Below the pieces are notes generated by a model. It ran no database searches. It was not told the DNA's origin and saw only the letters and a program-made list of their open reading frames with translations. A stretch of DNA of 64,000 nucleotides from positions 14,188 to 78,187 of the forward strand of contig CAUZEO010000001.1 in NCBI GenBank assembly GCA_963578625.1, written 5' to 3'. The translations under genes were made by a program, and so were the position numbers. Below are positions 6,795 to 36,319 of this stretch, piece after piece (position 1 is the stretch's first letter; the number at the start of each line of letters is the position of its first letter). Source of the stretch: Kiritimatiellia bacterium. GTDB taxonomy: Bacteria > Verrucomicrobiota > Kiritimatiellia > SLOV01.

Positions 6795-9002
6795 TCAAGC
6801 AAACTTCAAGAATGAATCTTCACACGTCAGCTCGTAAATCCGAACATCCGTCGCCGGCAACGCGGCAAGCAACTTGCCGTCCTCGATGCAGGTTTCCCCA
6901 CTGGAAAGCCATTCGTGGCAGGACTCGATTTGCGTGCCCTTCACCTCGACCGTACCGTCCCACGGCGCTTCGGCATTGTTGATCAGCGTGACCAGGAGCT
7001 TGTAGGGATCATCCGTTACATTCACGATCGACTGGATCGGCCGCCCCTTGATCTTGATGAGCGTATAGGATTCCAGCACGGATCCCACGATCTCCTGCAC
7101 CACCTTCAGGAAATTCACTGGGGGGAACGGCCGGCCCCGGATAAAGTCGTTCCGGTAGCTCATGTCCCAGGGCAGGTCCTCCCGCTTGTGCCAGACGTAG
7201 TCGGGCCGCTCGCCGTTGGCCCAGAACACCGGCGTCACAACAAACACATGGCCGTCACCCACCTTGTTCAAGCACACGAGCGGATGTCCCGCGTCGTTCG
7301 TTGCCAACACTTCCGCGCCGTCAGTCTCCACCAGGTCGTAAACGTATTCGGCCTCACGATAGGTTTTGCCGGTGACGAGGCTTTTTGCCGTGGCGTCCTT
7401 CAGGTCCTTGTCCTTCACCGTCACGCCCGCGAGGTCCGCGATGCCGCCGGTCATCTGCCGAGTACACAGGACGACCGAGCGGCCGGAGCGCACGAATGCT
7501 TCCAGGTTCGCCGCGAAACCCGCGTCGTCGGGCATCTGTCCCAACAGCACCACGGCCTGGTACTTCTTCAATGCGTCCTCCGACGCATTGTGCAGGAGCA
7601 CGTCGAAAGAATCGCCGAACGGGGTGGGGGTCAGGCAGCCGCGCTGATTTGGCGCATAGGCGTACTCGCCATACCCGGGATAAACCCAGTGGAAAAACTG
7701 GTCGATCTGGAAGTCACCCATATTGTAGGGGATGTTGCCCCATACCCGTTCCGGTTCACTCTGCCCCAGGCCCTTGTGAATGGGCGGGCACCAGCCGTGA
7801 TGGAAATCCAGAACCAGGGCCACTGGTGAGTACTGCACGCCTCGATTCGGACGCGCGCGCGTGATCCAGACCCACTTGCGGAATTCCCGGCCGAACGGGG
7901 TAAGGTTGTGCTCGAGATCGGAACCCCGGTGCAGGTTTCTCCGCTGCACGTCCGACGCCACGTCGCACACCGATGCGTTCTCCCGCTCCACCGGCAAATC
8001 GGGCCGGACGCCTTCCGCCTCGATTCCGGAGAAGTCCTTGGGCAGACCGCACATGTCGTCGTAGAAGAGTCCGCCCTCCGTGCCGCACAGACTGAATCCA
8101 TACATGTACGCAGCAAACCAGAGCCGCTTGGCCAGGTGGGTGGAAATTCCGCCGTCGGGGTAGCCGTATTGAAATTCGATTTTGATGCCCCGGCCTTCTT
8201 TCGGGTAGCACTTGGTACCATAGAAATCAGGCTTCTGCTCGATGCTCGGGATGAACATCGAGATGTGCCCATGTGTGAGCAGGTCGTACTGGCGGGAAGC
8301 GCCCCGCAGAAACGCGCATCGCATGATGCTGCTCTGCAGGCCGGTGCCGAGCTCCAGCCCAATCATGCGATGATTCAGTTCCGCATAATAGTGCGAAAAT
8401 CCCAGGCTCCCGATGGTGACCACGTAATGGTGAAACATCACGTCCAGGGTATCGCGGGAAAATCGAACAAAATCCTCGTAGGCTTCCTTCCGGCTGCGTT
8501 CCGGAGATTGTTTGGGCCAATTAAAGGAGCCGAAGACATATTGGCCAAGGTACTCCCCATCCTGCTCCCCGTTCTCCCACCCGAGAAACCGCGGGCCGAA
8601 GGTTTCCATCAGGAATTCCTGCACATCATCGGGCACCACCATTTCGCCGGAGCCCAGGTTGAAAGGAATGCCGTGGCGGATGCCCCAGATGCTGTTGATG
8701 ATCAGCCCTTTCTCGGCATACTTTTTCGCAATCTCGCGCCACCCCGGCTCCTCGCCGTCCTGCGGCCGGTTCACCCACATCCAGGCGGTGAATGGCCGGA
8801 TGGCGGTGGCAAAGTCATAGTCGAACATCGCGTTGTAGATCAGGTAATCGTTCCACCCCATCTGCACGCTCTCCTGGAAGTCTTTGGGAAGATCCCGCCT
8901 GGCCACCGGCTTCGGCTCGACCTGGTTGTACCGGGGGCTGTCCTCCGGCGTGATGGGCTTGTTGGGGATCGGGTGCAGGGTCAGTTCGGGCAACGTGGAC
9001 AT
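6795..9002 (-). CDS. Uncharacterised large protein, paralog family A, copy A1 (no signal peptide)
   Basis: 735-aa ORF collinear with 25429..27687 and 36320..38524. Shared blocks: DPKPVARRDLPKDFQESVQMGW, IWGIRHG, FGPRF.GWENGEQD, ERSRKEAYEDFVRFS, QYDLLTH, FVRSGR.VVLCTRQ. The layout looks like an N-terminal catalytic domain, an alpha/beta 'AVVLLG.MPDD' domain and a C-terminal beta-sandwich. Confidence 0.85.
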   Translation of the reverse strand: MSTLPELTLHPIPNKPITPEDSPRYNQVEPKPVARRDLPKDFQESVQMGWNDYLIYNAMFDYDFATAIRPFTAWMWVNRPQDGEEPGWREIAKKYAEKGLIINSIWGIRHGIPFNLGSGEMVVPDDVQEFLMETFGPRFLGWENGEQDGEYLGQYVFGSFNWPKQSPERSRKEAYEDFVRFSRDTLDVMFHHYVVTIGSLGFSHYYAELNHRMIGLELGTGLQSSIMRCAFLRGASRQYDLLTHGHISMFIPSIEQKPDFYGTKCYPKEGRGIKIEFQYGYPDGGISTHLAKRLWFAAYMYGFSLCGTEGGLFYDDMCGLPKDFSGIEAEGVRPDLPVERENASVCDVASDVQRRNLHRGSDLEHNLTPFGREFRKWVWITRARPNRGVQYSPVALVLDFHHGWCPPIHKGLGQSEPERVWGNIPYNMGDFQIDQFFHWVYPGYGEYAYAPNQRGCLTPTPFGDSFDVLLHNASEDALKKYQAVVLLGQMPDDAGFAANLEAFVRSGRSVVLCTRQMTGGIADLAGVTVKDKDLKDATAKSLVTGKTYREAEYVYDLVETDGAEVLATNDAGHPLVCLNKVGDGHVFVVTPVFWANGERPDYVWHKREDLPWDMSYRNDFIRGRPFPPVNFLKVVQEIVGSVLESYTLIKIKGRPIQSIVNVTDDPYKLLVTLINNAEAPWDGTVEVKGTQIESCHEWLSSGETCIEDGKLLAALPATDVRIYELTCEDSFLKFA

Positions 9003-9124
9003 GGCTCTCTCCTGTAGGCGAATTTTAAACTCCGGAAAATCTGCCCTAGCCTTGGAAGGATGTCGAGAATTTCACTCACGCCCTATAGATTACTTCGCCT
9101 TGGCCATGCGGAGAACAAATTGTC

Positions 9125-9844
9125 TCATTCGGGATATTCCGGGTCATGGCCTGTGATGACAGGAGCGTTCAGTCGGCGGATGCGTGCCAATCCCTGGAAA
9201 CAGGCCTGCAGGTCGCAGTTGTAACCCGGCGGCACGTCGTCGCGTAGATTCCGCGGGGTAAGCGCCACGTCACTGGTGAGAACCAACGGACCGGCGTCGG
9301 TCTGCACCATGACCGCCTGGGAACCCATGGTGTGACCGCCCAGCAGCAGCACGTTGATGCCGGGCAGGACTTCGGCATCGCCATCGAGGACGACCAGCCG
9401 GTCGGCACACCCTTTCAGGTGGGAATGCACGACGTCCACAAATGCGTGGGCCGCGAACCAGGGGTGGGGCGGATCAACGATCACATCCAACTCCCTGCGT
9501 TGGATGTACAGCCGCGCCTGGTCAAATGCCTTCACCACGGGCGAGCAGTGATCCCAATGCAGATGAGTGAAGATGATGTCGGTCACCTGGGAAGGCTCAA
9601 CCTGGGCTTGTTTGAGAAGGTTCAGCGGGCGGGTGGCTTCGGTCTGCCCCATATCGGGATTGAATGCCGCACCGTCGGCCTGGTCACAGCCGACGTCCAC
9701 CAGCACCGTTCGCTGGTTGTTCCGGATCAGCGTAAAGCGGTATTTCAAAGTGATGCTGCGCATCGGATCACCCAAAAAGTAGACGCGTGCTTCCGGTTCG
9801 ATGCTGCGTCCGAAAACCAGCGACTTGATCCGGTATGTGCTCAC
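9125..9844 (-). CDS. MBL-fold metallo-hydrolase
   Basis: HLHWDHCS metal-binding motif and a metallo-beta-lactamase-fold layout. The ORF runs to 10024, but that would overlap the upstream SDR; GTG at 9844 or a nearby start is more likely. Confidence 0.7.
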   Translation of the reverse strand: MSTYRIKSLVFGRSIEPEARVYFLGDPMRSITLKYRFTLIRNNQRTVLVDVGCDQADGAAFNPDMGQTEATRPLNLLKQAQVEPSQVTDIIFTHLHWDHCSPVVKAFDQARLYIQRRELDVIVDPPHPWFAAHAFVDVVHSHLKGCADRLVVLDGDAEVLPGINVLLLGGHTMGSQAVMVQTDAGPLVLTSDVALTPRNLRDDVPPGYNCDLQACFQGLARIRRLNAPVITGHDPEYPE

Positions 9845-9854
9845 CTCCGCAGCC

Positions 9855-10613
9855 TCACAGCATATACCCGCCATCCACAGGCACCAAAACGCCGGTGGTC
9901 CAGTCCGCGCCGCCGCCCGCCAGGTGAACCACGATGGCTGCAATATCTTCGGGCCGGCCCAATCGCCCCGCGGGCGTAGAGCGGATGATGCCGTCCCGGA
10001 CGCCGGGGCCGGCCAACTGCTCACGGTTGATCTCTGTTTCCACCGTGCCGGGAAGCACGGCGTTGACCTGAATGTTGTACGGCGCCAGGGCCACGGCCAG
10101 GGCCCGGGTCAGCATGTTCGCCGCCGCCTTGGAAGCACAATACACTACCTGTTGCGGGCTGGTCACCCCCTCGCCGGAAATGGACGTGATGTTGATGATC
10201 TTTCCGCTGCCGCGCGGCTTCATGTGCTCGGCCGCTGCCTGGGACAGCAGCAGCAGGGCGCGCGCGTGGAGATCAAAAGCAAGGTTCCATTGCTCCGGGG
10301 TCGATTCGAACACATCGGCAAGGATAGCGACACCCGCGTTGTTGACTAGAATATCCAGCGCCCCCAGCTGATCGATGGTCTGTTGGACGAGCCACGCGGC
10401 ACTCTCGACCCGGGTCAAATCGGCCTCCAGGAAAATGGCTCTGCGGTGCACCGCGCGAATTCGATCGGCGACCTGCTCTCCACGCTCACGGTCCTGGAAA
10501 CCGTGCACCGCGACATCCGAGCCGGCCGCGGCCAGTGCCCCGGCAATGGCCGCCCCGATGCCGCGCGAACTGCCCGTTACCAGGGCAACTTTGCCCTCGA
10601 GTTGCATGCTCAA
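9855..10613 (-). CDS. SDR family oxidoreductase
   Basis: VALVTGSSRGIGAAIA, NNAG, and YCASKAA catalytic Y-x3-K. Confidence 0.85.
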   Translation of the reverse strand: MSMQLEGKVALVTGSSRGIGAAIAGALAAAGSDVAVHGFQDRERGEQVADRIRAVHRRAIFLEADLTRVESAAWLVQQTIDQLGALDILVNNAGVAILADVFESTPEQWNLAFDLHARALLLLSQAAAEHMKPRGSGKIINITSISGEGVTSPQQVVYCASKAAANMLTRALAVALAPYNIQVNAVLPGTVETEINREQLAGPGVRDGIIRSTPAGRLGRPEDIAAIVVHLAGGGADWTTGVLVPVDGGYML

Positions 10614-11089
10614 GACTTTTTGGGTGTGGGATGAAAAACAACCGCATTGGCCTGGGGATCGAACTCACGCAGGAACGTGACCCCGTCGATCTTGCAGATG
10701 ATCGCGTCAGCCGTAGTGGTGACCGTGGCGCTTCCTTTGACCAGGTCCCCGCCATATAACCTTTCCTCGTCGACTACCGATACGTGAAGGTGGATTTCCA
10801 GCTGGCCGTCCTCGCGGGTGCAGACCATGCCCTGCCCGCCGGTGAAGGCAACCGGATGAGGCACTTCGATCTGCTTGGGTCCCACCCCGGACGGACTGCT
10901 TTTGTCCGCGACCGGAACGATCAGTTTCACGGCGTCGGCGCCGCCGATGAGAACCTCGATGGAACCGGCAGTGATTTCCTTTTCCCGGCATACTTCCAGC
11001 AGCCCTTCGGTGACATCTACCCCGGGCCGTAATCGCACCGCGATCAACTCTGATGTCCGTCCTTCTGCTACTAATGCATTCTGGTTCAT
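10610..11089 (-). CDS. PPC (DUF296) domain DNA-binding protein
   Basis: 159 aa with a PPC/DUF296-type beta-sandwich pattern (GVDVTEGLLEVCREKEITAGSIEVLIG...GDLVKGSATV). This is the only DNA-binding-type protein in the window. Confidence 0.6.
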   Translation of the reverse strand: MNQNALVAEGRTSELIAVRLRPGVDVTEGLLEVCREKEITAGSIEVLIGGADAVKLIVPVADKSSPSGVGPKQIEVPHPVAFTGGQGMVCTREDGQLEIHLHVSVVDEERLYGGDLVKGSATVTTTADAIICKIDGVTFLREFDPQANAVVFHPTPKKS

Positions 11090-12183
11090 CCTGTATTCTC
11101 CGTGGGCGGGGGGACGATCACCGCTTTGACACCCGCTTTACGGGCCAGGACATCCTTGATGCCCTGCTCGGCGTAGGCCAACTCATAGCGGTGCGTGACA
11201 AGTTGCTCCAGGGGGTATCGATTGCTTTCAAGCAAACGGATGGCCAGGTCAAAACCGTGCGCCTGACCCCAGCCGCCAATCACCGTTAATTCCTTTGCGG
11301 GAATCTCATCTTTGGTAATGGAGATCTGCGCATGTTCACTGTAACCGGCCAGAACAAATCGCCCGCGCCTTCGCAACATCTTAAGTCCCATCTCCACAGC
11401 GGCCGGCGCCCCCGACACCTCGATGGCAAGATCTACCCCCTCGCCGCCGGTGATCTGGCGAACCTGTTCCAATGGATCGCCATCTGCAGCGTTGATGACA
11501 TGGTCCGCGCCCAGGGTGTGCGCAAGATCCAGGCGTTCGTCATCACCGCCGGCTCCGATCAGGATCACTTCAGCCCCGGCTTCCTTGGCAACGATGGTAC
11601 TGCCGATTCCCTGCACCCCGGGACCGAAAATGGCAACCTTCTCCCCGGGTTGCACGTTCCCGCGTTGCTGCACCCAACGAACCGAGTTTGCCAGCACGGC
11701 GGTCAGGACCGCACGTTCCACCGGCACATCATTGGAAACACGGTGCGTGATCGAATTGGGATGAATGCATAGATACTGGCTGTAGGCGCCCCACAAATGC
11801 GGGGGATCGGCACAGGAAAACGAAACGCCATATTGCTTCTCATTCTCACAAAGGTTGTAGGCTCCACCGTGGCACATACGGCAGTACCCGCAGGGAATCA
11901 GCACCTCGGGCAAAAAACGGTCTCCCACCGACAGGCGGCGCCGGGATTGCGCGCGTTCGCCGATAGCCGCCACTTTCCCCACCATCTCGTGGCCCAGGAT
12001 CAGCGGATAGCGCGCGTGCGGATGCACGCCGCGGTAGGGCCCCCCGTCGCCACCGGCGCAGATGCCGCACATCTCCACTTCCATCAGCACCCAGTCCGGA
12101 TCGACCGAGGGAACTTCGAACTCCTGAACGCTTCCTTGCCCGGGTTGCTCCAATACGAATGCCTTGGAACTTCTAGCCCGCAT
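11086..12183 (-). CDS. MDR-family zinc-dependent alcohol dehydrogenase
   Basis: CGICAGGDG and GHEMVGKV zinc-ligand motifs and Rossmann motif GPGVQGIGS. Confidence 0.85.
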   Translation of the reverse strand: MRARSSKAFVLEQPGQGSVQEFEVPSVDPDWVLMEVEMCGICAGGDGGPYRGVHPHARYPLILGHEMVGKVAAIGERAQSRRRLSVGDRFLPEVLIPCGYCRMCHGGAYNLCENEKQYGVSFSCADPPHLWGAYSQYLCIHPNSITHRVSNDVPVERAVLTAVLANSVRWVQQRGNVQPGEKVAIFGPGVQGIGSTIVAKEAGAEVILIGAGGDDERLDLAHTLGADHVINAADGDPLEQVRQITGGEGVDLAIEVSGAPAAVEMGLKMLRRRGRFVLAGYSEHAQISITKDEIPAKELTVIGGWGQAHGFDLAIRLLESNRYPLEQLVTHRYELAYAEQGIKDVLARKAGVKAVIVPPPTENTG

Positions 12184-12204
12184 CTTTCACACTTTTATTT
12201 CCCA

Positions 12205-12873
12205 TTACTCCATCGCCACCACACGCACCGGAAACGCGTCCAATTTCTCTATCACCACGGGGAGCGCGGAGACAAAGACGCGGGTTTTCGATAACTGATC
12301 CAACCCGGTTAGATTCTCGATCAGCGGCACGCCGGCCCGAAAAATCGTCATGTGAGCTGGTCGTTCCGAATCCTTAGGATTCTCAATGCCCATCGCGTCA
12401 GCTCCCAGCAACTTCATCCCCTCATCCACCAACCATTGCAACGGCTCCGCCGTGAAATAGGGATTGTGCATGTACCGATCGTCGCCATAGTGCCGCGACC
12501 AGCCCAGGTTGGCGAAGACGATATCGCCTTTTCGAATTCCACCGTCCACCGCGGCGGCAGCGTCCTGCACCTGTTGCGCAGAGATCGCACTGCCCGCCGA
12601 CAACCCGCGCAGGTCCAGGATCACCGCTTCACCGACGAACGTATCAGGCGGAATGCTCGATAAGTCCAACCCGTCCTCCATGCAGTGCAAGGGGACTTCC
12701 ACGTGGGTACCGATGTGATTGACCATGTTGATGTAGTGCATGATATACCACTGACCCGGCCGCTGGATCACACCGGCGATCCGGTCAGAGTTAACCATCT
12801 CCACATCCATCCGGCGTTTTTCCTTGCCGGGGCTCAGCGGGTGCGAAAGGTCAATGATCCTTTGATATTGCAT
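12205..12873 (-). CDS. Cyclase-family protein (kynurenine-formamidase-like)
   Basis: HIGTHVEVPLH metal-binding motif typical of the putative cyclase family. Confidence 0.7.
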   Translation of the reverse strand: MQYQRIIDLSHPLSPGKEKRRMDVEMVNSDRIAGVIQRPGQWYIMHYINMVNHIGTHVEVPLHCMEDGLDLSSIPPDTFVGEAVILDLRGLSAGSAISAQQVQDAAAAVDGGIRKGDIVFANLGWSRHYGDDRYMHNPYFTAEPLQWLVDEGMKLLGADAMGIENPKDSERPAHMTIFRAGVPLIENLTGLDQLSKTRVFVSALPVVIEKLDAFPVRVVAME

Positions 12874-13093
12874 GCTACCTTTTAAGGTGTGATGTGAACC
12901 GTCACGGTCGCAGTCATGGGTCGGGCAGCAGTGTCCGTCAATTCAAAAGGATCGTTTACAACCTCAGTTCAAGGTCGACACCCAATAATTATATCGTTGA
13001 GGCTCGCAGAAAGACCACTGCGCAATCCTGAGAGGTAGGAGTTCCATTAGAACCTGTCTGTATTGGCTATTCATACCGGCGGTTGGGGTCCCG

Positions 13094-13623
13094 ATGAGCT
13101 TGGCCGATTCGCCGGTGCCGGAGATCCTGGCCGTGGATTTCGGTTACTGCCATCCGAGCCCGGAAGGCCTGGAGCTGTGGTGGTGTGAAGGCACGTACAA
13201 AGTGGGCCGTGAGAGGCCCCACGCCATTCGCAACCCACCTGGACGACGGCCATGGCCATCTCCCCGAATGCACATGCCTTCGGCAATGGAGACGGACTGC
13301 TGCTCTATCCGCCGTCCCGCGGCGTCCCGGACGATCCGATTATCGCGGGACCCATCAACTCCATTCGATGGGAAAACATCCGGGAAGGCTTGGAGGACAA
13401 GGAGTATTTCTGGCTGTTGGAACGCCAATTGGAACAGGTTCGGACACCGGCCCCTCTTGACGACAACGCCAAGGAGGCAATCCGCGAAGGAGAGGCGGCA
13501 CTGGACTCTGTCAACAGGCTCGTTCGGAGCTTGATCGACTACGAGACCGATCCCGGGAAACTCTACGCAGCACGCTCACTACTGGCGCATGCCATCGAAA
13601 ATCTTTCCTTCATCTCGAATTGA
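13094..13623 (+). pseudogene. Internal-deletion remnant of a DUF4091-like protein (paralog of 56324..58204)
   Basis: 13094..13230 encodes SPVPEILAVDFGY...LELWWCEGTYKVGRER, matching the N-terminus of the 626-aa protein at 56324..58204. 13252..13623 encodes GNGDGLLLYPPSRGVPDDPIIAGPINSIRWENIREGLEDKEYFW..., matching its last ~120 aa. About 450 internal codons are missing and the frame is broken. Confidence 0.6.
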
Positions 13624-13676
13624 TATTACCACTGTCGACGCCGTTAATGGCCTTGAATCCCACAGGAGATTTTACG

Positions 13677-14190
13677 TGAAACGATTTTTGCCCACAGGTC
13701 TGCTTATCGGATTCGCCTCTTCGGTTCTCGCCGCGAACCCGCTCGACGATGACCTGCGGTCGGTCGCCGACTTTGGCGCGGCAGGAGATGGGAAGGCGGA
13801 CGATACGAAAGCGCTCCAGGCGGCCATCGATGCCATTCCGGCCGCCGGCGGCATCGTCTTTCTCCCCGTCGGCATCTACCGAACGACCGCGCCGATCCGG
13901 CTGCGGCCGCAGTTGCGGTTGATGGGGGCCACGCGAAGATCATGGGGTTCCGCACCGGGATCCGGGACCGCGGCGCGGGCATGAATGTGATCCAGGGCAA
14001 CATGATCGACACGCAGGAGAAGGAAGGAATCGGGATCGACATGCATCCGGCGGAAGGGGCCCGTCCCAGCGTGGTCTCCGCCAACGTGATCGTGGCCGTC
14101 CGCGCCGGAATCCTCCGCCGCGAAAACGACCGCAACATTTATACCGGAAACGCCATGACGGACATGGAAGCTGGAAAGGGGCACCAATGA
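13677..14190 (+). pseudogene. Fragmented pectate-lyase-superfamily (right-handed beta-helix) gene
   Basis: GTG-start signal peptide VKRFLPTGLLIGFASSVLAANP, then DFGAAGDGKADDTKALQAAID. After a frameshift near 13940 come NVIQGNMI/SANVIVA beta-helix turns. Only ~170 codons remain of an expected 400+. Confidence 0.45.
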
Positions 14191-14262
14191 AATCCGGGAC
14201 CTCTGGACCGGCAACAGCGTCGCGTTCCTCATCGGCTCCAGCCTCGTGTGTATTCCTTGAAA

Positions 14263-14515
14263 TTAAGCAAACTTCAGAAAAGCTTCCTCGCACGTCAGCT
14301 CGTAAATCCGCACGTCCGTCGCCGGCAGGGCGGCGAGGAGCTTGACTCAATCACGGATCCAATGGTCTCCTGCACCACCTTCAAAAAATTCACAGGCGGA
14401 AACGGCCGGCCCCGGATGAAGTCGTTGCGGTAGCTCATGCCCCAGGGCAAGTCGTCGCGCTTGTGCCAAACATAGTCCGGCCGCTTGTCATTCGCCCAGA
14501 ATACCGGCGTGACGT
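14263..14515 (-). pseudogene. Remnant of a family-A gene
   Basis: 14263..14350 aligns to the 3' end of A1 (…CEDSFLKFA* region). 14351..14515 aligns to A1 7081..7250. About 220 nt between them, and everything upstream of them, is missing. Confidence 0.55.
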
Positions 14516-14523
14516 GGGGTTTA

Positions 14524-14557
14524 CTCCGCGTCTGTGGGCGCGGACTTCAGTCCGCAG
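14524..14557. repeat. 34-bp fragment of the 38941-type element terminus (inverted orientation)
   Basis: ccgcgtctgtgggcgcggacttcagtccgcagtg is the reverse complement of 38941..38974 with 2 mismatches. It abuts the family-A pseudogene breakpoint. Confidence 0.55.
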
Positions 14558-14666
14558 TGAGCAAAAAAAGAGGCGGGTCACAAACCCGTGCAGTAGTCGT
14601 GCCCGCCGACCCCGAAGGGTTGAGGCCCAGGAGCGCGATCATGGGGGAATGTTAACTTGCGAAGGT

Positions 14667-15347
14667 TCAGTATAGAAGCTCGTCCATGTTATCCGCAGTG
14701 TAGACTTGGTAGATGGCGTCGAATTCTTCGTACAGGTTCGCAAATTCTATGTCCGGATCATCAGGCGCATCCTGGCGTGTAAAAATGGCCATCTCTATTA
14801 CGCCTTGGCGCAGCAGCGCCGTAGGTCTGAACATCGGATCAAAGAATCGGGGAATAATAATCGGGGGGACAGACTCCGGTATGGAATTCAGTATCGCGAG
14901 ATCGGCCATGGGCGCACCCACGAGGGAAACGATTGCAGCAACATCCGGATTCGCTTCTCCAATCCTGATGTAATCGTCGACGGTCATTCTGCTCTCAGCC
15001 ACCATAGGCACGCCACGCTCTTGTGTGTCCCCCTGAAGCGTCTCCGACGCCACAATGTGTATGCCGGATTCCTTCAATGCCATTTCGAATACTTTGTCAT
15101 GCTGCACGAACGTATCCTCGACGGTTTTCTTGTCATGTATAAGCAGAACGACGCGCGCGCCTTGACCAAGATATTCGCCCGTCTTTTCTGCAGCGATGCG
15201 CCCGAACTCCACAAACCTGTCGTCGAACACCTTGGCGCTCTGTTGCGACCCCGATTTCAGGATCGAAATCAGACTGATGATGATGATCAGGATTGCGATG
15301 ACGACGACAATCGGGGCCTTCTCTGTACTCATCTTAGACCATGGCAT
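14667..15347 (-). CDS. Hypothetical membrane-anchored protein
   Basis: 226 aa with an N-terminal TM helix (IVVVIAILIIIISLISIL) and a short alpha/beta domain. Lower GC than its neighbours. Confidence 0.45.
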   Translation of the reverse strand: MPWSKMSTEKAPIVVVIAILIIIISLISILKSGSQQSAKVFDDRFVEFGRIAAEKTGEYLGQGARVVLLIHDKKTVEDTFVQHDKVFEMALKESGIHIVASETLQGDTQERGVPMVAESRMTVDDYIRIGEANPDVAAIVSLVGAPMADLAILNSIPESVPPIIIPRFFDPMFRPTALLRQGVIEMAIFTRQDAPDDPDIEFANLYEEFDAIYQVYTADNMDELLY

Positions 15348-15494
15348 TTTGATTCATCTCCATTTTGCTGTGTAGCCGCACCGTCCAAGTAACGCATAGC
15401 AGGGCCTCCAGGCGATAAGCAAGCACGTTCCACGCACCGTCAAGCTCATGGGGGCACGGTCTTTCCCTTTGCTGGTCGACCAGCTTATCCTCGG

Positions 15495-16049
15495 TTGGGT
15501 TATGGGCCGCGGCTTGTGACTGCTTGGACTCTTATGGCAGTGGCGATCGGATGGGCGCCGTTCGCGTACGGCGCAGGGAGCAATACGGTCGGGCGTATCT
15601 GCAGCACGACCAATGTTTCGCCCGGCTATACGCTGTTTTCCACCTTGCGGTACACCAACACCTATCTCGTCGACATGGAGGGAGATATTGTCCACTTGTG
15701 GCGCTCCGGTTTTCCCGCGGGCAACACGCATTACCTCCGCGAGAACGGCAACCTGGTGCGGGCCGCCGATCCGGGAAGCACCCATTTTGTCATCTGCGGC
15801 GATGCCGGCGCGGTGCAGGAGTTCGCCTGGGAGGGGAATTTGCTGTGGGAATTCCACTACAACGACGAGAACGTTCGCGCCCACCATGACATCGCGCTGC
15901 TGCCCAACAGCAACATCCTGATGATTGCCTGGGAACGGAAATCGAACGCAACAAGCCATCGGCACCCTGACTCATTTTACCGACACGGATCCCGTACGTG
16001 CCAACCAGAGCCCACCCTTCTACCAGGTCGTCGCGAGGCCGTGACCTGA
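15495..16049 (+). pseudogene. Truncated arylsulfotransferase (ASST)-like paralog
   Basis: The first ~155 aa (signal peptide, NTVGRICSTTNVSPGYTLF, HHDIALLPNSNIL) align with the intact downstream gene. After ERKSNA the sequence jumps to the 3' terminus of that gene (…THFTDTDP…) in another frame. This is an internal-deletion remnant. Confidence 0.6.
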
Positions 16050-16262
16050 GTATAAGCCTTTGTGGGCCGGGAGGGAGGGGTCTCCAAGAGAGCATCCATT
16101 GTGAAATTTGCAAGAGTCGTGTAGAATAAATGGATGATAGTATCCTGTCTTGGACCTTCCTGCCGGGACGAGGTGCCGCACAAGGTGCCGTGTCCGCTCC
16201 CATCTGGCCGTCGTCTTTCTTGTCACCCTTTCCGGAACAGGTGCCGGCGATTGTTGGCGTGG

Positions 16263-17819
16263 ATGGCTACGGCGACCGCCGCCGCACTCGCGCTGTCGAC
16301 GCCTGCCAACGGTGGCGGTGTCAACACCGTCGGCCTCATATCCAGTACGCCCGACGCCTCGCCCGGGTACACGCTATTCACTTGCCTTGTCTATAACGAT
16401 GCATACCTAGTCAATGTAGAAGGACAAATCGTTCACTCTTGGCGAAGCCCATACGCTTTTTCCTTGGCGCCGTATCTCAAGGAGAACGGCAACATGCTCA
16501 AATATTCCCTCCGGGCGCCCATGCAGGAATTTGACTGGGACGGAAATCTGCTCTGGGAGTATCACTATGAGAGTGCAAGCGTTACCATGCATCACGACAT
16601 CGCGATTCTCCCCAACGGCAACATCCTGGTGATCGCCGACGAGACAAAGTCAAACGCCGAGGCGATCGCGACAGGTCGAAGGCCCATTTTTTCAAGTGCC
16701 GTCGATGCACTGCATGTTGTCGAATTGATGCCGGTCGGTTCGAACAGTGCAACCATCGTCTGGGAATGGCACATCTGGGATCACCTGATTCAGGACTTCG
16801 ATACGAACCAGGCGAACTTCGGCGTGGTGGCGGATCATCCCGAACGGGTCGACATCAACTTCGGTGAGCTCAATTATCAAGATTGGCTCCATGCCAATTC
16901 CATTGATTATAACGAATCATACGATCAAATCATCTTGAGTATTCGTACCTTCAGCGAGTTCTGGGTTATCGATCACAGCACGACCACGGCGGAGGCCGCA
17001 GGACACACCGGAGGCAACAGCGGGAAGGGAGGCGACCTGCTGTACCGGTGGGGAAATCCCCTGGCGTATGACCGCGGGGCACAGGCGGATCAAAAGTTGT
17101 TTAAACAGCATGACGCGCAATGGATCCCGCAGGGGAAGCCCGGCGCCGGAAATATTCTGGTGTTTAATAACGGCGCCGGCCGCCCGGGTGGCCACAGCTC
17201 AGTCGAAGAAATCGCCCCCCCGGTAGACGGGAACGGGTGGTACACCAACCCGCTGCCGGGCGCCGCGTTTGGACCGGCAGCGCCGGTGTGGAGCTACACC
17301 GCCACCCCGCCGGGGAGCCTGTTCAGTTTTACTTTATCAGGAGCCGATCGCCAACCCAACGGGAATACCCTCATCTGCGATGGGGATGCGGGAACCTTTC
17401 TGGAAGTGACCATGAACGGCGAGCTGGTGTGGCATTATGTCAGTCCAGTCAACGGGTCGGGACCGATGCCCCAGGGCTCGCATCTCGTGGAGAGTAGCAC
17501 GTTCAGAGCCGATCGCTATCCGCCGGACTTTCCGGCATTTGCAGGGCGGGATCTTACCCCGAACGGTACCCTGGAATGGGACGCTTCCGACGCATTCCAG
17601 TTTCAACAGGTCGGCCGAACGGCATCCGAAGTGAATTTGTCCTGGGCAAGTCTACCGGAGTCGACGTATCAGGTACAATACGCGCTGTCGCTGGAAACCC
17701 CCGGGTGGACGACCATCTCCACGCAGACCGCCATCGGCACACGGACTCATTTCACGGACACCGATCCCCTTCGCATCAACCAGGCCGTGTCCTGCTATAG
17801 GGTGCTCGAATCACCATGA
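16263..17819 (+). CDS. Arylsulfotransferase (ASST)-like beta-propeller protein with C-terminal Fn3-like domain
   Basis: Signal peptide MATATAAALALSTPANG. HHDIAILPNGNIL and later blocks are typical of the ASST family. The ORF begins at 16134, but the Met at 16263 precedes the signal peptide. Confidence 0.65.
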   Translation: MATATAAALALSTPANGGGVNTVGLISSTPDASPGYTLFTCLVYNDAYLVNVEGQIVHSWRSPYAFSLAPYLKENGNMLKYSLRAPMQEFDWDGNLLWEYHYESASVTMHHDIAILPNGNILVIADETKSNAEAIATGRRPIFSSAVDALHVVELMPVGSNSATIVWEWHIWDHLIQDFDTNQANFGVVADHPERVDINFGELNYQDWLHANSIDYNESYDQIILSIRTFSEFWVIDHSTTTAEAAGHTGGNSGKGGDLLYRWGNPLAYDRGAQADQKLFKQHDAQWIPQGKPGAGNILVFNNGAGRPGGHSSVEEIAPPVDGNGWYTNPLPGAAFGPAAPVWSYTATPPGSLFSFTLSGADRQPNGNTLICDGDAGTFLEVTMNGELVWHYVSPVNGSGPMPQGSHLVESSTFRADRYPPDFPAFAGRDLTPNGTLEWDASDAFQFQQVGRTASEVNLSWASLPESTYQVQYALSLETPGWTTISTQTAIGTRTHFTDTDPLRINQAVSCYRVLESP

Positions 17820-17837
17820 CCCGCCTTGGTTCACGAC

Positions 17838-17872
17838 AAAAAGCGGGGCGGGTCTCTTGGACCCGCCCCGCT
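17838..17872. terminator. Bidirectional GC-rich hairpin terminator between convergent genes
   Basis: gcggggcgggtc-tcttgg-acccgccccgc. On the minus strand it is followed by TTTTTG, 25 nt after the LamG stop. Confidence 0.6.
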
Positions 17873-17899
17873 TGAAGTTCAATTTCTGTGTAAGGTTAC

Positions 17900-18793
17900 T
17901 TACCGTCGGCGACGAATCGCGAGGAGCAATCCGCCAAGGCCTAACAGGGCCAGGGTCCCGGGTTCGGGAATACTCATGTAAGTCTGAACCTCGCTCTGAG
18001 TCAGGAGACCGTCGAAGACCCTCAGTTCATCAATTTTGCCGAGGAATCCGCGGCCGGCGCCGGTGTGGGCATCGTGTCCACCGACTACGAAGTTTCCGCC
18101 CCAGTCTTGATCTATCCCTCCAAATCCCTGGGTGTCCTCCAGTACACCATTCACGTAGAGATGTTTTTCGTCCGAATCACTGTCCCACGTGGCTGCAACG
18201 TGAACCCATTCCTCCACGGCAAGTAGTCCGGATCCGCGGGCGGAGGCGACGTCACCGGCGGCTCTCAATTCAACACGCATGCCCGTATAGTTATGCTGAT
18301 TGTGCACGACGTAATTGAACGGATCGTTCCCCTTGACGACAATCCAGTTGGCATTATCCGGGTTGTTGAGGGCGTTATCGTTACCGTATCCAGTACCGTC
18401 ACCGTCGGTACCCCCGTCTTGCCTCATCCAGAACATGATTGATCCGCGGTTAGCCAACGCAAACGACGCATCATCTCCGAAGTACACGACGTCGCCAGTC
18501 GGACCTATAGGCATCCGGTCTCTCCGGGTCCCATGCACGGGAGGATCGTCGGCGATGCCGTCACCTCGTACGCCGTGGAACTGGAGGCCGCCCCCGCTAT
18601 GTCCTGTGGTCCAGTCCGAGTCGCTCTTCATGAACGAGAACTCCCCATGCTGAGGATTGGTGGCCACCTGGTCGAAGACGTTCGTTCCCGAGCCTTCGTT
18701 GAAGTTGTAATAGTGAGTCATGGTCACGCCACCCGCCTGGGCTATTCCTGCCGCGGCGAGAAACATAACGGTTACCGTTAGCATTTTCTTCAT
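17900..18793 (-). CDS. LamG-like (concanavalin A-like) secreted protein with PEP-CTERM anchor
   Basis: Signal peptide, LamG-like core shared with two upstream paralogs, and C-terminal IPEPGTLALLGLGGLLLAIRRRR (PEP motif, TM helix, Arg cluster). Confidence 0.85.
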   Translation of the reverse strand: MKKMLTVTVMFLAAAGIAQAGGVTMTHYYNFNEGSGTNVFDQVATNPQHGEFSFMKSDSDWTTGHSGGGLQFHGVRGDGIADDPPVHGTRRDRMPIGPTGDVVYFGDDASFALANRGSIMFWMRQDGGTDGDGTGYGNDNALNNPDNANWIVVKGNDPFNYVVHNQHNYTGMRVELRAAGDVASARGSGLLAVEEWVHVAATWDSDSDEKHLYVNGVLEDTQGFGGIDQDWGGNFVVGGHDAHTGAGRGFLGKIDELRVFDGLLTQSEVQTYMSIPEPGTLALLGLGGLLLAIRRRR

Positions 18794-19306
18794 TTTGCCA
18801 GTCTCTCCTTACTTTTTGCTACTTTTCGCCTGTTGGCGACAAACCACGCCTTAACTTCCTTCTCCGCACTACTTTACTACTTGCTTCACCATCTTCTGAC
18901 TCCCCCTAGTCCTTATCTATAATTTCACGACGGTAACCTGTCCGAATTTCCCTGTTCCGTCAAGACCTTATCTTTTTTTTTTTGCAACCAGTCATCTTGG
19001 CACTTATTAACAGCCAAGCTGTCAGCAACCTGTCAATAACCTCTCAGAAATGCCCCTTTTTCGTTAAAATCTTATCGTCTTTTTTTACTATCAGGGGGTT
19101 GAGGGGGGCAGGGAGCGAAAAAATCCTTGACTCATCGCAGGGTGTTTGGCCTAACGGAAGCTTCAAAACCGCCCTGTAGTAGAGGGTATCCTCGCCCGGA
19201 CTGGGGGGGGGCCTTTCGTTCAAGAAAGGCCCTGATCATCATAATGCCGGAATTTCCGTGAATATTTTGATTTCCGCTAAATGGAAGTGCATACACGGCC
19301 GCGTGT

Positions 19307-19433
19307 AGCTTGGTCCTCCAAGCCCGAGCCGGGGCAAGCGATGGTCATGATGTGGCGAATGCCTTGAGGCTTGCTCCAGCATTCGCTTTCCATGATCTCC
19401 TCCTGCCCGGGGTCGGGCTTGGAAACCCAACCT
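19307..19433. mobile_element. MITE-like element copy 1
   Basis: cttggtcctccaagcccgagcc … ggggtcgggcttggaaacccaacctac. Same termini and related interior (ttccatgatctcctcctgc vs ttctatgatcaccccttgc) as copy 2. Lies in the intergenic region between LamG genes. Confidence 0.55.
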
Positions 19434-19520
19434 ACTTTTCGCGAATGGGATAGCTTCTAGTATTGAAGCCACTTCATCGGGCCGTCGTCGCAAAGAACGC
19501 TTGAATTACTCGCAATAAAC

Positions 19521-19553
19521 AAAACGGGGCAGGTCCTGGAGGACCCGCCCCGC
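19521..19553 (-). terminator. Rho-independent terminator downstream of LamG paralog 2
   Basis: cggggcaggtcc...ggacccgcccc hairpin, followed on the minus strand by TTTTGTTTATT. Confidence 0.55.
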
Positions 19554-19600
19554 TCGAAGTTGCATTCCTTGTTCGTTAGCTATCGGCGGCGAATCGCCAA

Positions 19601-20686
19601 CTACTCCTCCAGAATCTGATACTGCGCCGTGTTGTCGAACCCGTTCGGATCGTAGAGACGCTGGGTCCCGCCATCGCCGACGATGCTGGCCCCGGCATCC
19701 AGGAACACGACGCTGGTGCTGTTGGAAACTTGCAGCACGTAATCTCTGCCGACCTCGCTATCGAACTGTAAAAACGTCGTGGGGCCCACCGTGACGGTTT
19801 CGAACCCGGGCCCCGGCAGGGGGATCGAGGCCATTTCAGCCTGCACGGCGGCATTATCCAGAAGCTCGTCGAAGATCTTCAGTTCATCAATCGCGCCGAG
19901 AAATCCGCGGCCGGTGCCTGTGTGGCTGTCATGCCCGCCGAGCACAAAGGGTCCCCCCTGGTCGTTCAATCCGCTCCAGGAATCGGCACTGTTGCCCACT
20001 AAGTCACCGTCGACCCACAGCCGTACCGAATTCGATGCCGAATTCCAGCCGACCACAAAATGCACCCATGTTCCTACAGGCAGCGGAGAAGGCGCTGCTA
20101 TGTTCGGGCCACCATTCAATTCGATGCGACCGTGGTATGCTGCATTCGGCTGATTGTGAAGGAGATACGAGAACGGATCCGAACCATGAACTACGAGCCA
20201 GTTGGAGTTATCCGGGTTGTTGATGGCTCCGGCTTCACCGTATGCACTACCGTCACCGTCGGGACCCGGGTCCTGCCGCATCCAGAACATGATGGTGCCG
20301 GTGCTGGTCAACGCGAAGGATGCATCGCTACCGAACCGGACCACGTCGTTCTTCGGACCCTGAGGCTCCCGGTCAAGCCGGGTCGGATGAACCTGTGGGT
20401 CATCGAGGATGCCGTCGCCCCGCACGCCGTTGAACTGCAGGGCGGTTCCGCCCCCGATCAGCGGCGAGTCCACCCAGTCGTTGGTCGGGTTCTTCCCTGC
20501 GCCGAACGTGCCGTGCTGCGGATTAGTGATCACCTGGTCGAACACGTTCGTTCCGGCCCCTTCGTCGAAGTTGTAGTAGTGAATCATGGCCGCCTGAGAG
20601 CCGGCCGCGCACAGGAAGCACGCCGCAGCCGCGGCGGCAATCACTGTGGCTGTCCATCTGTTCGTTTTCATCTGAATTTTCTTCAT
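19601..20686 (-). CDS. LamG-like secreted protein (paralog 2, no PEP-CTERM)
   Basis: Signal peptide and LamG core homologous to 17900..18793 (HYYNFDEG.GTNVFDQV.TNPQHG, GVRGDGI.DDP.VH.TR.DR), plus an extra C-terminal beta-sandwich. Confidence 0.8.
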   Translation of the reverse strand: MKKIQMKTNRWTATVIAAAAAACFLCAAGSQAAMIHYYNFDEGAGTNVFDQVITNPQHGTFGAGKNPTNDWVDSPLIGGGTALQFNGVRGDGILDDPQVHPTRLDREPQGPKNDVVRFGSDASFALTSTGTIMFWMRQDPGPDGDGSAYGEAGAINNPDNSNWLVVHGSDPFSYLLHNQPNAAYHGRIELNGGPNIAAPSPLPVGTWVHFVVGWNSASNSVRLWVDGDLVGNSADSWSGLNDQGGPFVLGGHDSHTGTGRGFLGAIDELKIFDELLDNAAVQAEMASIPLPGPGFETVTVGPTTFLQFDSEVGRDYVLQVSNSTSVVFLDAGASIVGDGGTQRLYDPNGFDNTAQYQILEE

Positions 20687-20708
20687 GGTTTCTCCACGTG
20701 ATTTTGAA

Positions 20709-21893: not shown

Positions 21894-22121
21894 GGGCCAG
21901 AGGGCCCGACCTCGCGCAATCTAGGAAAGATACCTCCCCCGCAAACGGGCTGGCAACAAAAAAATCATTGAATATCGGCATAACTACGTTTAGCATTCCA
22001 TTGCTTAACGGAGCGGTGATCCGACCCGAAAATCGGGTCGCTTCCGTCGATGATACATCACGGATGCGTGACTACGGCAGGAGATCCGGAAATGCGTTTT
22101 TGCAAGAAAGTAAAGCAAAAC

Positions 22122-22949: not shown

Positions 22950-22958
22950 GGTTGTGGA

Positions 22959-23729: not shown

Positions 23730-23889
23730 GGTAGTGGATTCCGGGTTCAGCTGGGGTTGAGCGCTCCCCCCTTAGCCTGCCGTGACAATCGGGCTCCAGC
23801 TATCGGCGAAAATCCTCTGCGTTGCGGGGGGGCGGGGCACTGTTCAATGCCTACTGAGAGGCGTCCTCAAGGCTCCGAAGAGTCTTGGT

Positions 23890-24200: not shown

Positions 24201-24315
24201 GGTGCCTGTGAGGAGTCTTGGGGTTCCGGTTGTCGTCCGCCACACGGGTCACACACCCGTGCTGCGAAAAAACCGCCCCGTCCTTCCTCCTTGATTCCAC
24301 CTGCACAATGATGCG

Positions 24316-27687: not shown

Positions 27688-27705
27688 CCAAGGAAAGGAT
27701 ACACG

Positions 27706-31984: not shown

Positions 31985-31991
31985 ATCGTCT

Positions 31992-32040: not shown

Positions 32041-32042
32041 AA

Positions 32043-36314: not shown

Positions 36315-36319
36315 AACAA

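Follow-up and report, generated by a model that had tools for sequence, protein, structure and literature searches.

How do two clearly diverged genes come to share an almost identical upstream sequence? Within the window (the whole stretch of 64,000 nt that was analysed), this question is raised by a pair of family-A genes, A1 (6795..9002, 735 aa) and its paralog A2 (36320..38524, 734 aa), both on the minus strand, as are all the genes at the two loci. NCBIfam and PDB sequence searches with A1 returned nothing, and the predicted GH42/GH164-like three-domain fold comes from a fold search, the only informative one. The two genes are 75% identical at the amino acid level and 76% at the nucleotide level, with a dS of 1.06 and a dN of 0.16 (omega 0.15).

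The repeated module and its edges

Upstream of A1 lies an intact gene for an MBL-fold hydrolase (9125..9874, minus strand, 249 aa, Pfam Lactamase_B). It is the final gene of a Cyclase-ADH-PCC-SDR-MBL cluster, and its product resembles N-acyl homoserine lactone (AHL) lactonases, with scores far under the family cut-offs. The first copy of the repeated module, R1 (9003..9474, minus strand), consists of the last 350 nt of MBL (9125-9474) and the 122-nt MBL-A1 intergenic leader (9003-9124), while the second, R2 (38525..38935, minus strand), consists of a leader copy (38525-38646) and a pseudogene fragment of the MBL 3' end (38647-38935). Global alignment, BLAST and a repeat search all recovered this homology, which amounts to 96.4% identity (15 mismatches in 411 ungapped columns). 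Relative to R1, R2 has deletions of 4 nt (9217-9220) and 57 nt (9230-9286), and it is truncated distally at the position equivalent to 9474, inside MBL. The leaders differ at 5 positions, the neighbouring MBL portion likewise has about 96% identity, and the longest perfectly identical block found by sequence comparison spans 58 bp (9350..9407, partner 38811-38868). Terminal repeats and a target-site duplication were not found on the module. The initial annotation had described near-identical segments (~95%) at 9003..9478 and 38525..38940, made up of the 122-nt gap between the MBL stop and the A start, with its Shine-Dalgarno sequence, plus the 3' part of MBL, and had called the second MBL copy a deleted and truncated pseudogene; all of this agrees with the present results, apart from ends at 9478 and 38940 that lie about 4-5 nt too far out.

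At the gene side, the similarity drops abruptly. The maximum likelihood changepoint in divergence is at 9005, which is -3 from the ATG, with support from 9015 to 8999 (-13 to +4) and a likelihood-ratio statistic of 50. Divergence is 3.6% on the module side against a dS of 1.06 on the gene side, and even the first 50 codons, with a dS of 0.585, are still highly diverged compared with the module. A drop to about 70% at the A start codon had been proposed; its position is borne out, but the level is higher, at about 76-78% overall in a global alignment (within the A genes, 0.70-0.86 for windows of 50 nt). A uniform identity gradient across the boundary, which would have spoken against the proposal, was not found. 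The same edge is seen in independent assemblies, where three Logan contigs end exactly 32 nt upstream of the ATG of A1 or A2. On the evidence of their divergence, A1 and A2 are old paralogs with recently copied upstream sequence.

The distal junction of R2 is formed by an element of about 220 bp (38936..39155) that was not mentioned in the initial annotation. Small and without coding capacity, it carries terminal inverted repeats and, at its centre, a perfect 20-bp hairpin, all of them features shared with MITEs, and the DNA fold of the element has z = -4.6. The core of the terminal inverted repeat, CTGCGGAnTGAAnTCCGC, is found at 38944 on the plus strand and at 39134 on the minus strand. One full and one half copy of this MITE-like element are present in the window, the partial one (14520-14559) at another rearrangement junction. 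No clear target-site duplication is visible at its ends. The order U2-MITE-R2-A2 is repeated in JGI contig L008, with 1 mismatch in 9105 nt, and the U1-R1-A1 arrangement of the window is also found in a related strain (JGI, L023).

Donor, recipient and variants of the module

A different sequence at the recipient locus is found in MAG SRP092796_co2_739, from a related member of the Verrucomicrobiota (locus L028). Its counterpart of A2 is 97% identical at the amino acid level to that of the window; upstream it has GHL6-442aa-PhyH(reverse) and a 5' region of its own, without an MBL fragment or a MITE. At the nucleotide level the MAG and the window are homologous only as far as -2, and the native promoter region is diverged, with similarity at the level of paralogs. 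The dS between the two A2 genes is 0.097 while that of neighbouring genes is 0.45-1.0, so the A2 locus is a mosaic in which the order of events is uncertain, and the MAG is not a clean outgroup.

R2 is the derived copy and R1 the donor. The direction follows from the differences between them, 12 of 15 being GC in R1 and AT in R2, and from the state of the MBL sequence, which is a broken gene fragment in R2 and part of an intact gene in R1. The MAG locus, where A2 has a 5' region other than the module, likewise shows R2 to be derived. Recent conversion of the upstream module had been put forward initially, and recent, non-reciprocal copying independent of the coding regions is what is seen. Classical conversion, with homology on both sides of the tract, does not fit, as the distal end of R2 joins the MITE-like element and unrelated DNA; the copy event therefore had one illegitimate end.

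The proximal half of the leader probably carries a promoter for family A. A promoter-like sequence, TCGACA-N17-CAGATT (9038..9066, minus strand), is situated 64 nt upstream of the ATG of A1, and in R2 (38560..38588, minus strand) a C to T change gives the consensus -35 hexamer TTGACA. The same motif, TCGACA-N17-CA(G/A)A(T/C)T, is found at -63 to -65 both in the leader of the window and before three independent family-A genes (L027, L028 and L033), and this shared motif and offset suggest that it is a family-A promoter. Within the 64-kb window it is found only at the two leaders (0.02 expected, for a pattern that was drawn up after the sequences had been seen). The 17-nt spacer lies within the 16-18 nt of the sigma-70 criterion, but the -10 hexamer has only 3 of 6 matches, which explains why the motif is below the threshold of a generic sigma-70 scan in R1 and is not called in R2. 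Promoter and terminator scans of both loci gave no promoter and no relevant terminator. A Shine-Dalgarno sequence, AGGAG, can be read at 9009-9013 for A1 and, as a copy, at 38531-38535 for A2 (both minus strand). The earlier suggestion of a cis-regulatory leader thus survives in a limited sense, for the proximal ~65 nt with a conserved candidate promoter motif and Shine-Dalgarno sequence, and not as a structured RNA.

In public data, all copies of the module come from one species-level population, with two per genome only. A scan with a leader 28-mer found nothing in GTDB genomes and picked out four JGI contigs, in every one of which the leader is joined to the MBL 3' fragment, and in each of the six distinct contexts found the module occurs with this fragment and an A1- or A2-type 5' end. 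It is absent upstream of A3 and upstream of the family-A genes in L027, L028, L030, L033 and L034. A second case was sought in L030 (URO-D-A) and L033, in which A comes after a fragment of URO-D, and the upstream regions of the two were unrelated. Homologs of MBL align across 96% of its length, and there are only four close ones; the contexts L020-L022 have no A genes and no module. In a distant relative (L034), family-A and MBL genes are adjacent and the copied leader module is absent.

Variants within the population point to repeated exchange. In L024 and L026 an R1-like module is fused to A1-type codons 1-17, followed by A2-type codons; the A copy there is a truncated pseudogene with the A1-type tract reaching 50 nt into the ORF, whereas the A2 gene of the window is intact and the tract stops at the ATG. 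L025 has a mixture of R1 and R2 SNPs, without the deletion, and the R alleles fail the four-gamete test.

Reciprocal recombination between the copies

Recombination between the two copies, a point not raised in the initial annotation, is seen in contigs from a sister metagenome sample, ERZ27247695, assembled with MEGAHIT (k = 141). These are 99.92-99.96% identical to the window and represent a slightly different strain. Contig L002 has the deletion junction, U2-MITE-R-A1, in which R is of type 2 distally and type 1 proximally, and contig L007 has the circle junction, U1-R-A2, in which R is of type 1 distally and type 2 proximally and includes the deletion. Both switch between 9408 and 9349, inside the 58-bp identical block, with complementary SNP phases; within this block L007 also carries two SNPs that are private to it. 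The segment between equivalent points of the repeats, 29,461 bp (9350..38810), is missing from the deletion-junction contig and is found as circular contig k141_2466773, with a length of 29,602 bp (29,461 + 141) and with its first 141 nt equal to its last 141 nt (= k). Both reciprocal junctions thus exist in assembled contigs, and the direct repeats R1 and R2 have recombined reciprocally to give a deletion junction and a 29,461-bp circle. In vivo, to judge from the contigs, the latter may be an excised circle, a tandem array or a separate replicon.

The 29.5-kb segment contains ordinary glycan-utilisation genes and pseudogene debris. Pfam and precomputed domains for the larger ORFs between 9 and 39 kb revealed no integrase, recombinase, replication or partition domains in or beside it, and no tRNA gene usable as an att site is present. 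A plasmid or integrative element was considered for this segment and rejected, as it has no replication, partition or integrase genes. One consequence of the recombination is that differences in gene order at the R1/R2 repeat can be genuine among contigs of this population.

Origin of the repeat and comparison with known systems

The repeat is probably the result of a recent ectopic copy of the A1 upstream region that replaced the native 5' region of A2, in other words a promoter replacement or capture between paralogous loci. The copied DNA would have been the 350 nt at the 3' end of the lactonase-like MBL gene together with the 122-nt intergenic sequence that holds the candidate promoter and ribosome-binding site of A1, and would have overwritten the native 5' region of an old paralog, A2, in this lineage. 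The proximal junction would have formed where the two loci begin to share usable similarity, at a CCATG that both contain (-13 to +4 relative to the ATG), and the distal junction would have been illegitimate, within MBL at 9474 and beside the MITE-like element. A homologous or microhomologous end combined with an illegitimate end resembles homology-facilitated illegitimate recombination (HFIR) or template switching, and the original copy event may have occurred in this way. R2 would then have decayed as non-functional DNA, by GC to AT changes and a microhomology-flanked deletion, with occasional re-conversion from R1 in other strains. A2 would now be under an A1-type promoter, 5' UTR and ribosome-binding site, as predicted from sequence motifs, and the resulting direct repeats, 411-472 nt long and 29.5 kb apart, would permit RecA-type recombination to delete or loop out the glycan-utilisation segment. 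The closeness of the proximal junction to the start codon counts against this reading, and is not predicted by neutral recombination; a junction at the ATG would call for heteroduplex rejection, joining by microhomology, or selection that keeps the gene functional. The event is of a known kind and belongs to ordinary genome dynamics, with no new RNA element, mobile cassette or element class.

An ancient duplication of MBL, leader and A, with the upstream part kept uniform by gene conversion and with selection on specialised enzymes removing tracts that enter the coding region, would also accommodate the repeated exchange observed between the two loci, the tract that enters the ORF in the L024/L026 pseudogene and stops at the ATG of the intact A2, and the adjacent family-A and MBL genes of L034. 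It is considered unlikely, given the MAG A2 locus, which lacks an MBL fragment and has a native promoter region diverged to the level of paralogs, the relatives in which no A genes follow the MBL homologs, and the GC to AT decay and intermediate L025 allele, which fit a single copy event followed by decay. Another reading, one of the options in the initial annotation, is a promoter or leader cassette that is mobile in its own right and inserts before family-A genes. In its favour are the near-identical sequence before two diverged genes, which stops abruptly at the ATG, the adjoining MITE-like element and a similarity in the range defined for putative mobile promoters (PMC3575422), yet there are only two copies per genome, every public copy drags along an MBL 3' fragment and belongs to a single species-level population, A3 and the other family-A genes examined (L027, L028, L030, L033 and L034) have none, the module has neither terminal repeats nor a target-site duplication, and the MITE lies outside the repeat and is missing from R1. 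The cassette must be judged very improbable, and the suggestion is not upheld. Equally improbable is that the repeats are att sites of a site-specifically excising island, or that a 29.5-kb plasmid integrated at the 3' end of MBL. Integrative elements often carry a duplicate of their target gene's 3' end, and one sample has both the 29,461-bp circular contig and a contig with the corresponding empty site; nevertheless, the repeats measure 411-472 nt and have SNPs dispersed along them, the crossovers map to the longest block of identity, which is what homologous recombination predicts, and the segment, with its ordinary glycan-utilisation genes and debris, is without the integrase, recombinase, replication or partition domains of such an element.

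Least credible are a structured RNA and an assembly artefact. The 122-nt gap in an otherwise tightly packed operon and the high identity of the leader copies would be consistent with a riboswitch, attenuator or other structured cis-regulatory leader kept by selection. The copies available for comparison are all at least 93% identical to each other, and their similarity reflects recency rather than constraint, as the adjoining pseudogene is equally identical. A check of the RNA structure, as proposed at the outset, gave no support for such a leader: its minimum free energy is no better than that of shuffled sequences (z = +1.00 for R1 and +0.80 for R2, with 171/200 and 149/200 shuffles folding at least as well), terminator prediction is empty, and nowhere in the window does an Rfam hit attain the gathering score. 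With the limit relaxed to E<1, the sole Rfam match in 8900-9500 is the archaeal snoRNA sR38, which is on the opposite strand and, with 18.8 bits where the cut-off is 50, at chance level. The upstream regions of other family-A genes align with the leader at the promoter-like blocks only. As for chimeric assembly of the repeat or of the swapped contigs, the data are from metagenomes (MEGAHIT, k = 141), and repeats of ~96% identity can confuse assembly graphs. Against this, the parental junctions are found with independent assemblers and samples (JGI L008, JGI L023 and the Logan contigs ending at the repeat edge), the ERZ27247695 contigs come from a slightly different strain, and the products are exactly reciprocal, with a circle closure of exactly k bases. 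The longest exact repeat, 58 bp, is far under k = 141, so the recombinant 141-mers need real reads.

If the favoured reading, recent promoter replacement, is correct, the locus offers a clean natural example between old paralogs, in which donor, recipient, ancestral state and junctions can be read from the sequence, and the copy event, as a side effect, created direct repeats between which a 29.5-kb segment for polysaccharide utilisation is deleted or circularised in a natural population. It would also supply, in TCGACA-N17-CAGATT, a promoter candidate for an uncharacterised GH42-like family, in a phylum with poorly known promoters. More speculatively, the conserved promoter/5' block that family-A genes have in common and the module of MBL fragment and leader might serve as a recombination handle by which ORF-length family-A alleles are swapped with one shared expression signal in front of them and whole glycan-utilisation segments are looped out or amplified. 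Hints of this are the A2 ORF, an island of identity with the MAG whose edge is at precisely the ATG (dS 0.097, against 0.45-1.0 for neighbouring genes), the mosaic A1/A2 5' ends of L024/L026, and the circle and deletion junction in one sample. The idea is improbable; if true, it would mean cassette-like, recombinase-free variation of glycoside-hydrolase repertoires in a marine Verrucomicrobiota population.

'Putative mobile promoters' were defined by Nijveen, Matus-Garcia and van Passel (2012) as upstream sequences with at least 80% identity over at least 50 nt between -150 and -50, in a survey that left out gene pairs that are paralogs and that cites Blount et al. for promoter capture in citrate utilisation by E. 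coli (PMC3575422). R1 and R2 reach this similarity, with 96% similar sequence at -150 to -50 before two genes of one genome, and as in promoter capture or reuse the duplicated DNA includes part of a neighbouring gene and has transcriptional rewiring as a plausible effect. Unlike in the surveyed cases, the downstream genes are paralogs (76% nucleotide identity), there is one donor and one recipient instead of a family of sites, and the module does not travel to several targets free of flanking gene fragments. It differs from promoter capture elsewhere in that the sequence displaced by the candidate promoter is itself a native promoter, homologous and of like type.

HFIR was described for incoming linear DNA during transformation or conjugation (PMC3240628), and mismatch repair limits strand exchange between diverged DNA (PMC6382021). 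The present case resembles ectopic conversion and HFIR in its non-reciprocal transfer, its abrupt change in divergence and a tract that stays out of ~23%-diverged sequence, and resembles HFIR in having one junction at the edge of homology and the other illegitimate. It differs from HFIR in having a donor from within the genome itself, or from within the population, and the mechanism is read from the junction sequences alone.

Similarity to MITEs and REP-like elements is found in the terminal inverted repeats, strong hairpins and ~220 bp length of 38936-39155, which differs from such elements proper in lying outside the repeated module and in having no identified target-site duplication. RecA-dependent recombination between direct repeats leads to deletion, excision or amplification. 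As in such cases, repeats of a few hundred bp flank the segment, an empty junction and a circle are present, and the crossover lies in the longest stretch of identity. Unlike the usual cases, the repeats stem from the copying of a promoter module and not from IS or rRNA sequences, the variation is a natural polymorphism between metagenomes of uncultivated Verrucomicrobiota, and the circular product seemingly persists, as an assembled contig.

The repeated module and family A

Two family-A genes, A1 (6795-9002, 735 aa) and A2 (36320-38524, 734 aa), both on the minus strand, lie directly downstream of the two copies of the module. R1 (9003-9474) consists of the 122-nt leader (9003-9124) and the 3' part of a minus-strand MBL-fold gene (9125-9874, 249 aa, Pfam Lactamase_B), while R2 (38525-38935) carries the copied leader at 38525-38646. 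BLAST and global alignment of 6.7-9.7 kb with 36.2-39.2 kb revealed homology that starts at the 3' ends of the A genes and continues unbroken as far as 9474/38935, with identities per 50-nt window of 0.56-0.90 within the A genes and, one gap excepted, 0.94-0.98 across 9011-9460. R1 and R2 are 96.4% identical (15 mismatches in 411 ungapped columns), and R2 lacks the counterparts of 9217-9220 and 9230-9286. The maximum likelihood changepoint between repeat and gene divergence is at 9005, or -3 from the ATG (support 9015-8999; LRT 50). A1 and A2 share 75% aa identity (dS 1.06, dN 0.16; dS 0.585 for the first 50 codons alone). The near-identical module upstream of two diverged genes, as described in the initial annotation, is thus borne out, and the divergence changes in an abrupt step and not as a uniform gradient. 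The outer coordinates originally assigned were slightly off, and identity beyond the step is about 76-78%, not 70%.

The A1/A2 pair is an incomplete account of family A in the window. A third full paralog, A3 (25429-27687, plus strand), has 67% aa identity to A1 and an upstream region unrelated to the leader, and an 83-codon C-terminal remnant of a fourth gene, A', is found at 14265-14513 (minus strand). Beyond A' is a patchwork of gene fragments (12900-14260) including pectate-lyase-like pieces, where 13050-13212 is an inverted copy of part of the gene at 57999-58161. Among 5.8 billion proteins only 32 family-A homologs were found at E <= 1e-10, and none of them is a named protein. An AlphaFold model (30 sequences; pLDDT 87, pTM 0.92) matched GH42 beta-galactosidases, a GH164 beta-mannosidase and a beta-1,2-glucosyltransferase in a fold search (E 1e-14 to 1e-17, 9-13% identity), and because of the GH42/GH164 matches family A is probably an uncharacterised glycoside hydrolase with three domains. 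In a distant relative (L034) the family-A gene has URO-D, MBL, transketolase, cupin and SDR genes as neighbours, so the A-MBL neighbourhood has a functional logic.

Other repeats occur in the window. The paralogs 27706-30948 (DUF6259) and 52391-55612, both about 1075 aa, share 70-74% nt identity across 29221-30528 and 53933-55207, and the window is therefore rich in old duplicated glycan-utilisation genes. Tandem genes with N-terminal methylation motifs (22050-22949 and 22959-23729) share 300 nt at 94% identity (22230-22529 and 23010-23309), and are another paralog pair homogenised locally. GC-rich hairpins (AAAAGCGGGGCGGGTC...GACCCGCCCCGCTT) repeated at 17839-17887 and 19521-19569, downstream of LamG/PEP-CTERM genes, look like terminators. 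A conserved 62-nt stretch (82% identity) lies across the starts of two other genes (19381-19442 and 43163-43224).

Origin of the second copy

The window corresponds to ENA ERZ27247711 contig k141_2080754, and 100% identical contigs are present in JGI 3300031802 and the Logan assemblies of SRR9039920 and SRR9039963. The Logan contigs end 32 nt before the ATG of A1 or A2, which fits a repeat edge since a k = 31 graph would break exactly so. The GTDB MAG 'uncultured Verrucomicrobiota bacterium SRP092796_co2_739' has three family-A genes. The A2 counterpart (contig L028; 97% aa and 96.9% nt identity) and the giant LamG gene converge as they do in the window, and upstream of this counterpart are GHL6-442aa-PhyH(reverse) and then a different 5' region, nucleotide homology with the window ending at 38526 (-2). 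The counterpart of A3 is on L029. The full gene on L027 (order 203aa-226aa-A) lies directly downstream of homologs of window genes 14667-15965, and matches the position of A', not that of A1 (dS to A1 = 1.02). MBL homologs are rare (best non-self matches 72, 71 and 49% identity), and in the contigs that carry them what comes after SDR-MBL is an ADH gene or a convergent gene, in no case a family-A gene. Because A2 of L028 has another 5' region and the MBL homologs have no family-A neighbour, R2 is derived and has replaced the 5' region of A2 in this lineage specifically. Copying from R1 to R2 agrees with 12 of the 15 differences, which have GC in R1 where R2 has AT, and with the truncated and deleted state of the gene fragment in R2.

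The A2 ORF (36320-38524) is an ORF-sized island of 96.9% identity to L028 3001-5202, its 5' edge being the ATG and its 3' edge fading through the intergenic region into LamG. Relative to the MAG, dS is 0.097 for A2 as against 0.45 (A3), 0.63 (DUF6259), 0.81 (GHL6) and 1.0 (LamG), so A2 alleles have evidently been exchanged recently between lineages. The A2 locus is a three-part mosaic, and allele import and promoter replacement are compatible with either order.

The distal end of R2 adjoins a MITE-like element of about 220 bp (38936-39155), which has a perfect 20-bp hairpin at its centre (GGCCACAAAGAGGCACAAAA...) and is bounded by terminal inverted repeats (TIRs; core CTGCGGAnTGAAnTCCGC). With 4 TIR matches where 0.06 would be expected, the repeats are significantly enriched, and folding of the element as DNA gives z = -4.6. 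A half copy (14520-14559) adjoins A', at a second rearrangement junction, and in the strain of L002 (3664-3893) the element has an extra 26-nt hairpin unit.

It had been proposed that the module might be a mobile promoter/leader cassette. A leader 28-mer gave 0 matches in 185,579 GTDB genomes and matched four JGI contigs, never alone: in all contexts found, the leader is accompanied by an MBL 3' fragment and an A-type start, and this makes a free cassette very unlikely. L023 has SDR-MBL-leader-A1 from a related strain. L024 and L026 have the order 327aa-MITE, a C-terminal LamG fragment (592 nt), module and A 5' end, with the module starting <=2 nt from the MBL breakpoint of R2, and the A 5' end being A1-type in codons 1-17, A2-type to about codon 43 and then truncated. 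Their LamG fragment (L026 4750-5341, L024 5-254) matches window 35607-36198 at 89-94% identity, in the C-terminal LamG domain of the giant gene, and sits between the MITE and the MBL' fragment with GGGGCGG duplicated at its flanks; it looks like a microhomology-type insertion. In L025 the module has mixed R1/R2 SNPs without the deletion, and the A2-type 5' end is truncated at codon 88. The R alleles fail the four-gamete test (alignment columns 557 and 440), so exchange between the two loci recurs, and the end of the A1-type tract differs among strains.

Copying of the segment from MBL position 9474 to the A1 start into the A2 locus may have been akin to homology-facilitated illegitimate recombination (PMC3240628) or microhomology-mediated template switching. 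The proximal end would have joined at or beside CCATG, where the loci first align at useful identity, and the distal end by an illegitimate join beside the MITE. Other microhomology-type events in the region are the GGGGCGG-flanked LamG fragment (L026) and a 57-nt deletion with microhomology flanks. Strand exchange into coding DNA diverged by about 23% is strongly limited (PMC6382021), and selection for an intact A2 would purge tracts altering the enzyme. Either could explain why the A1-type tract goes no further than the ATG in the window, whereas in L024/L026, where the A copy is a pseudogene, it extends 50 nt into the ORF.

Recombination between the repeats

In a sister metagenome sample, ERZ27247695, the flanks of the two repeats are swapped. 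Contig L002 (k141_1382816) has the order GHL6-327aa-MITE-R-A1-downstream operon, and L007 (k141_2466773) has Cyclase-ADH-PCC-SDR-MBL-A2-LamG, with the MBL gene frameshifted by a 61-nt deletion. SNP phasing of L007 gave R1-type alleles to 9408 and R2-type from 9349 on, and L002 is its exact complement; both crossovers therefore lie within 9350-9407, a 58-bp block over which R1 and R2 match perfectly for longer than anywhere else. In this block L007 has two SNPs of its own (window about 9380 and 9359), against about 0.045 expected from the contig SNP rate, and they may be repair-associated changes or a third allele.

L007 is 29,602 bp long, or 29,461 + 141, where 29,461 bp is the distance between the repeats on the distal side of the deletion. 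Its ends were predicted from this arithmetic and then retrieved via the predicted partial gene product (start) and the neighbouring gene (end). The contig begins and ends with the same 141 nt, and the overlap is no longer than that, so L007 forms an isolated cycle of the k = 141 graph, and its content is exactly the DNA between the repeats. At 99.92-99.96% identity to the window, L002 and L007 come from a slightly different strain. The recombinant 141-mers must derive from reads, as the exact repeat (58 bp) is far below k, and the parental junctions also occur in JGI contigs L008 and L023 (independent support); for these reasons the parental and recombinant arrangements both appear to be real. 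The 29,461-bp segment encodes lectin-domain, N-methyl-motif and arylsulfotransferase-like proteins, A3, DUF6259, the giant LamG protein and pseudogene debris. Since integrase, replication and partition genes are absent from it, the economical reading of the assembled contigs is ordinary homologous recombination between the repeats.

The leader as a candidate promoter

The initial annotation regarded the leader as a cis-regulatory candidate. A structured RNA is very unlikely: the fold of either copy was no more stable than those of dinucleotide-shuffled sequences (z +1.00 and +0.80), no Rfam match within the window reached the gathering score (a sensitive scan gave one, at chance level), no terminator or attenuator was predicted at the leader, and the adjoining MBL pseudogene fragment is equally similar between R1 and R2, so the similarity of the leaders reflects recency, not constraint. 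A five-codon mini-ORF (ATG GCC AAG GCG AAG TAA; 9084-9101, minus strand) in the distal half, upstream of the promoter-like motif described below, is probably fortuitous; its copy-2 counterpart (38606-38623, minus strand) begins ATG GAC.

What stands is a promoter-like motif at a conserved offset in family-A genes. When the 130 nt before the ATG of window A1 and A2, the L027 gene, the MAG A2 (L028) and A3 were aligned, a block, CTCGACAT, was equidistant from the ATG in four of the five, A3 being the exception. The pattern TCGACA-N17-CA(G/A)A(T/C)T is at -64 (window), -64 (L027), -65 (L028) and -63 (L033, a family-A gene with 83% identity to A1), and the -35-like hexamer is TTGACA in R2 versus TCGACA in R1. 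TYGACA-N17-CARAYT occurs in the 64-kb window only in the two leaders, against 0.02 expected, a count that is not an independent test as the pattern was composed after the sequences were seen; it occurs once each, at the same offset, in L027, L028 and L033. Paralogous upstream regions are about 55-60% identical overall, and the shared position despite this indicates constraint. A generic sigma-70 scan did not call the motif, because CAGATT fits just 3/6 positions. Roughly the proximal 65 nt of the leader would then be A1's own putative promoter and 5' UTR, of which the family-A paralogs may have inherited versions. The whole module is absent upstream of other family-A genes (A3, L028), and the promoter-like block is kept in L027, L028 and L033.

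The original observation is confirmed and its interpretation supported in part. Among known systems, promoter reuse or capture (PMC3575422) comes closest, and the similarity found here falls within the range used in that survey. The module is not in the 'mobile promoter' class as defined there, because A1 and A2 are paralogs and the module is not independently mobile. The event works like ectopic conversion or homology-facilitated illegitimate recombination with a later repeat-mediated deletion or excision, all of them known processes, and the kind of event is already known; its main contribution lies in the reciprocal recombinants documented here and in a candidate promoter motif for family A.
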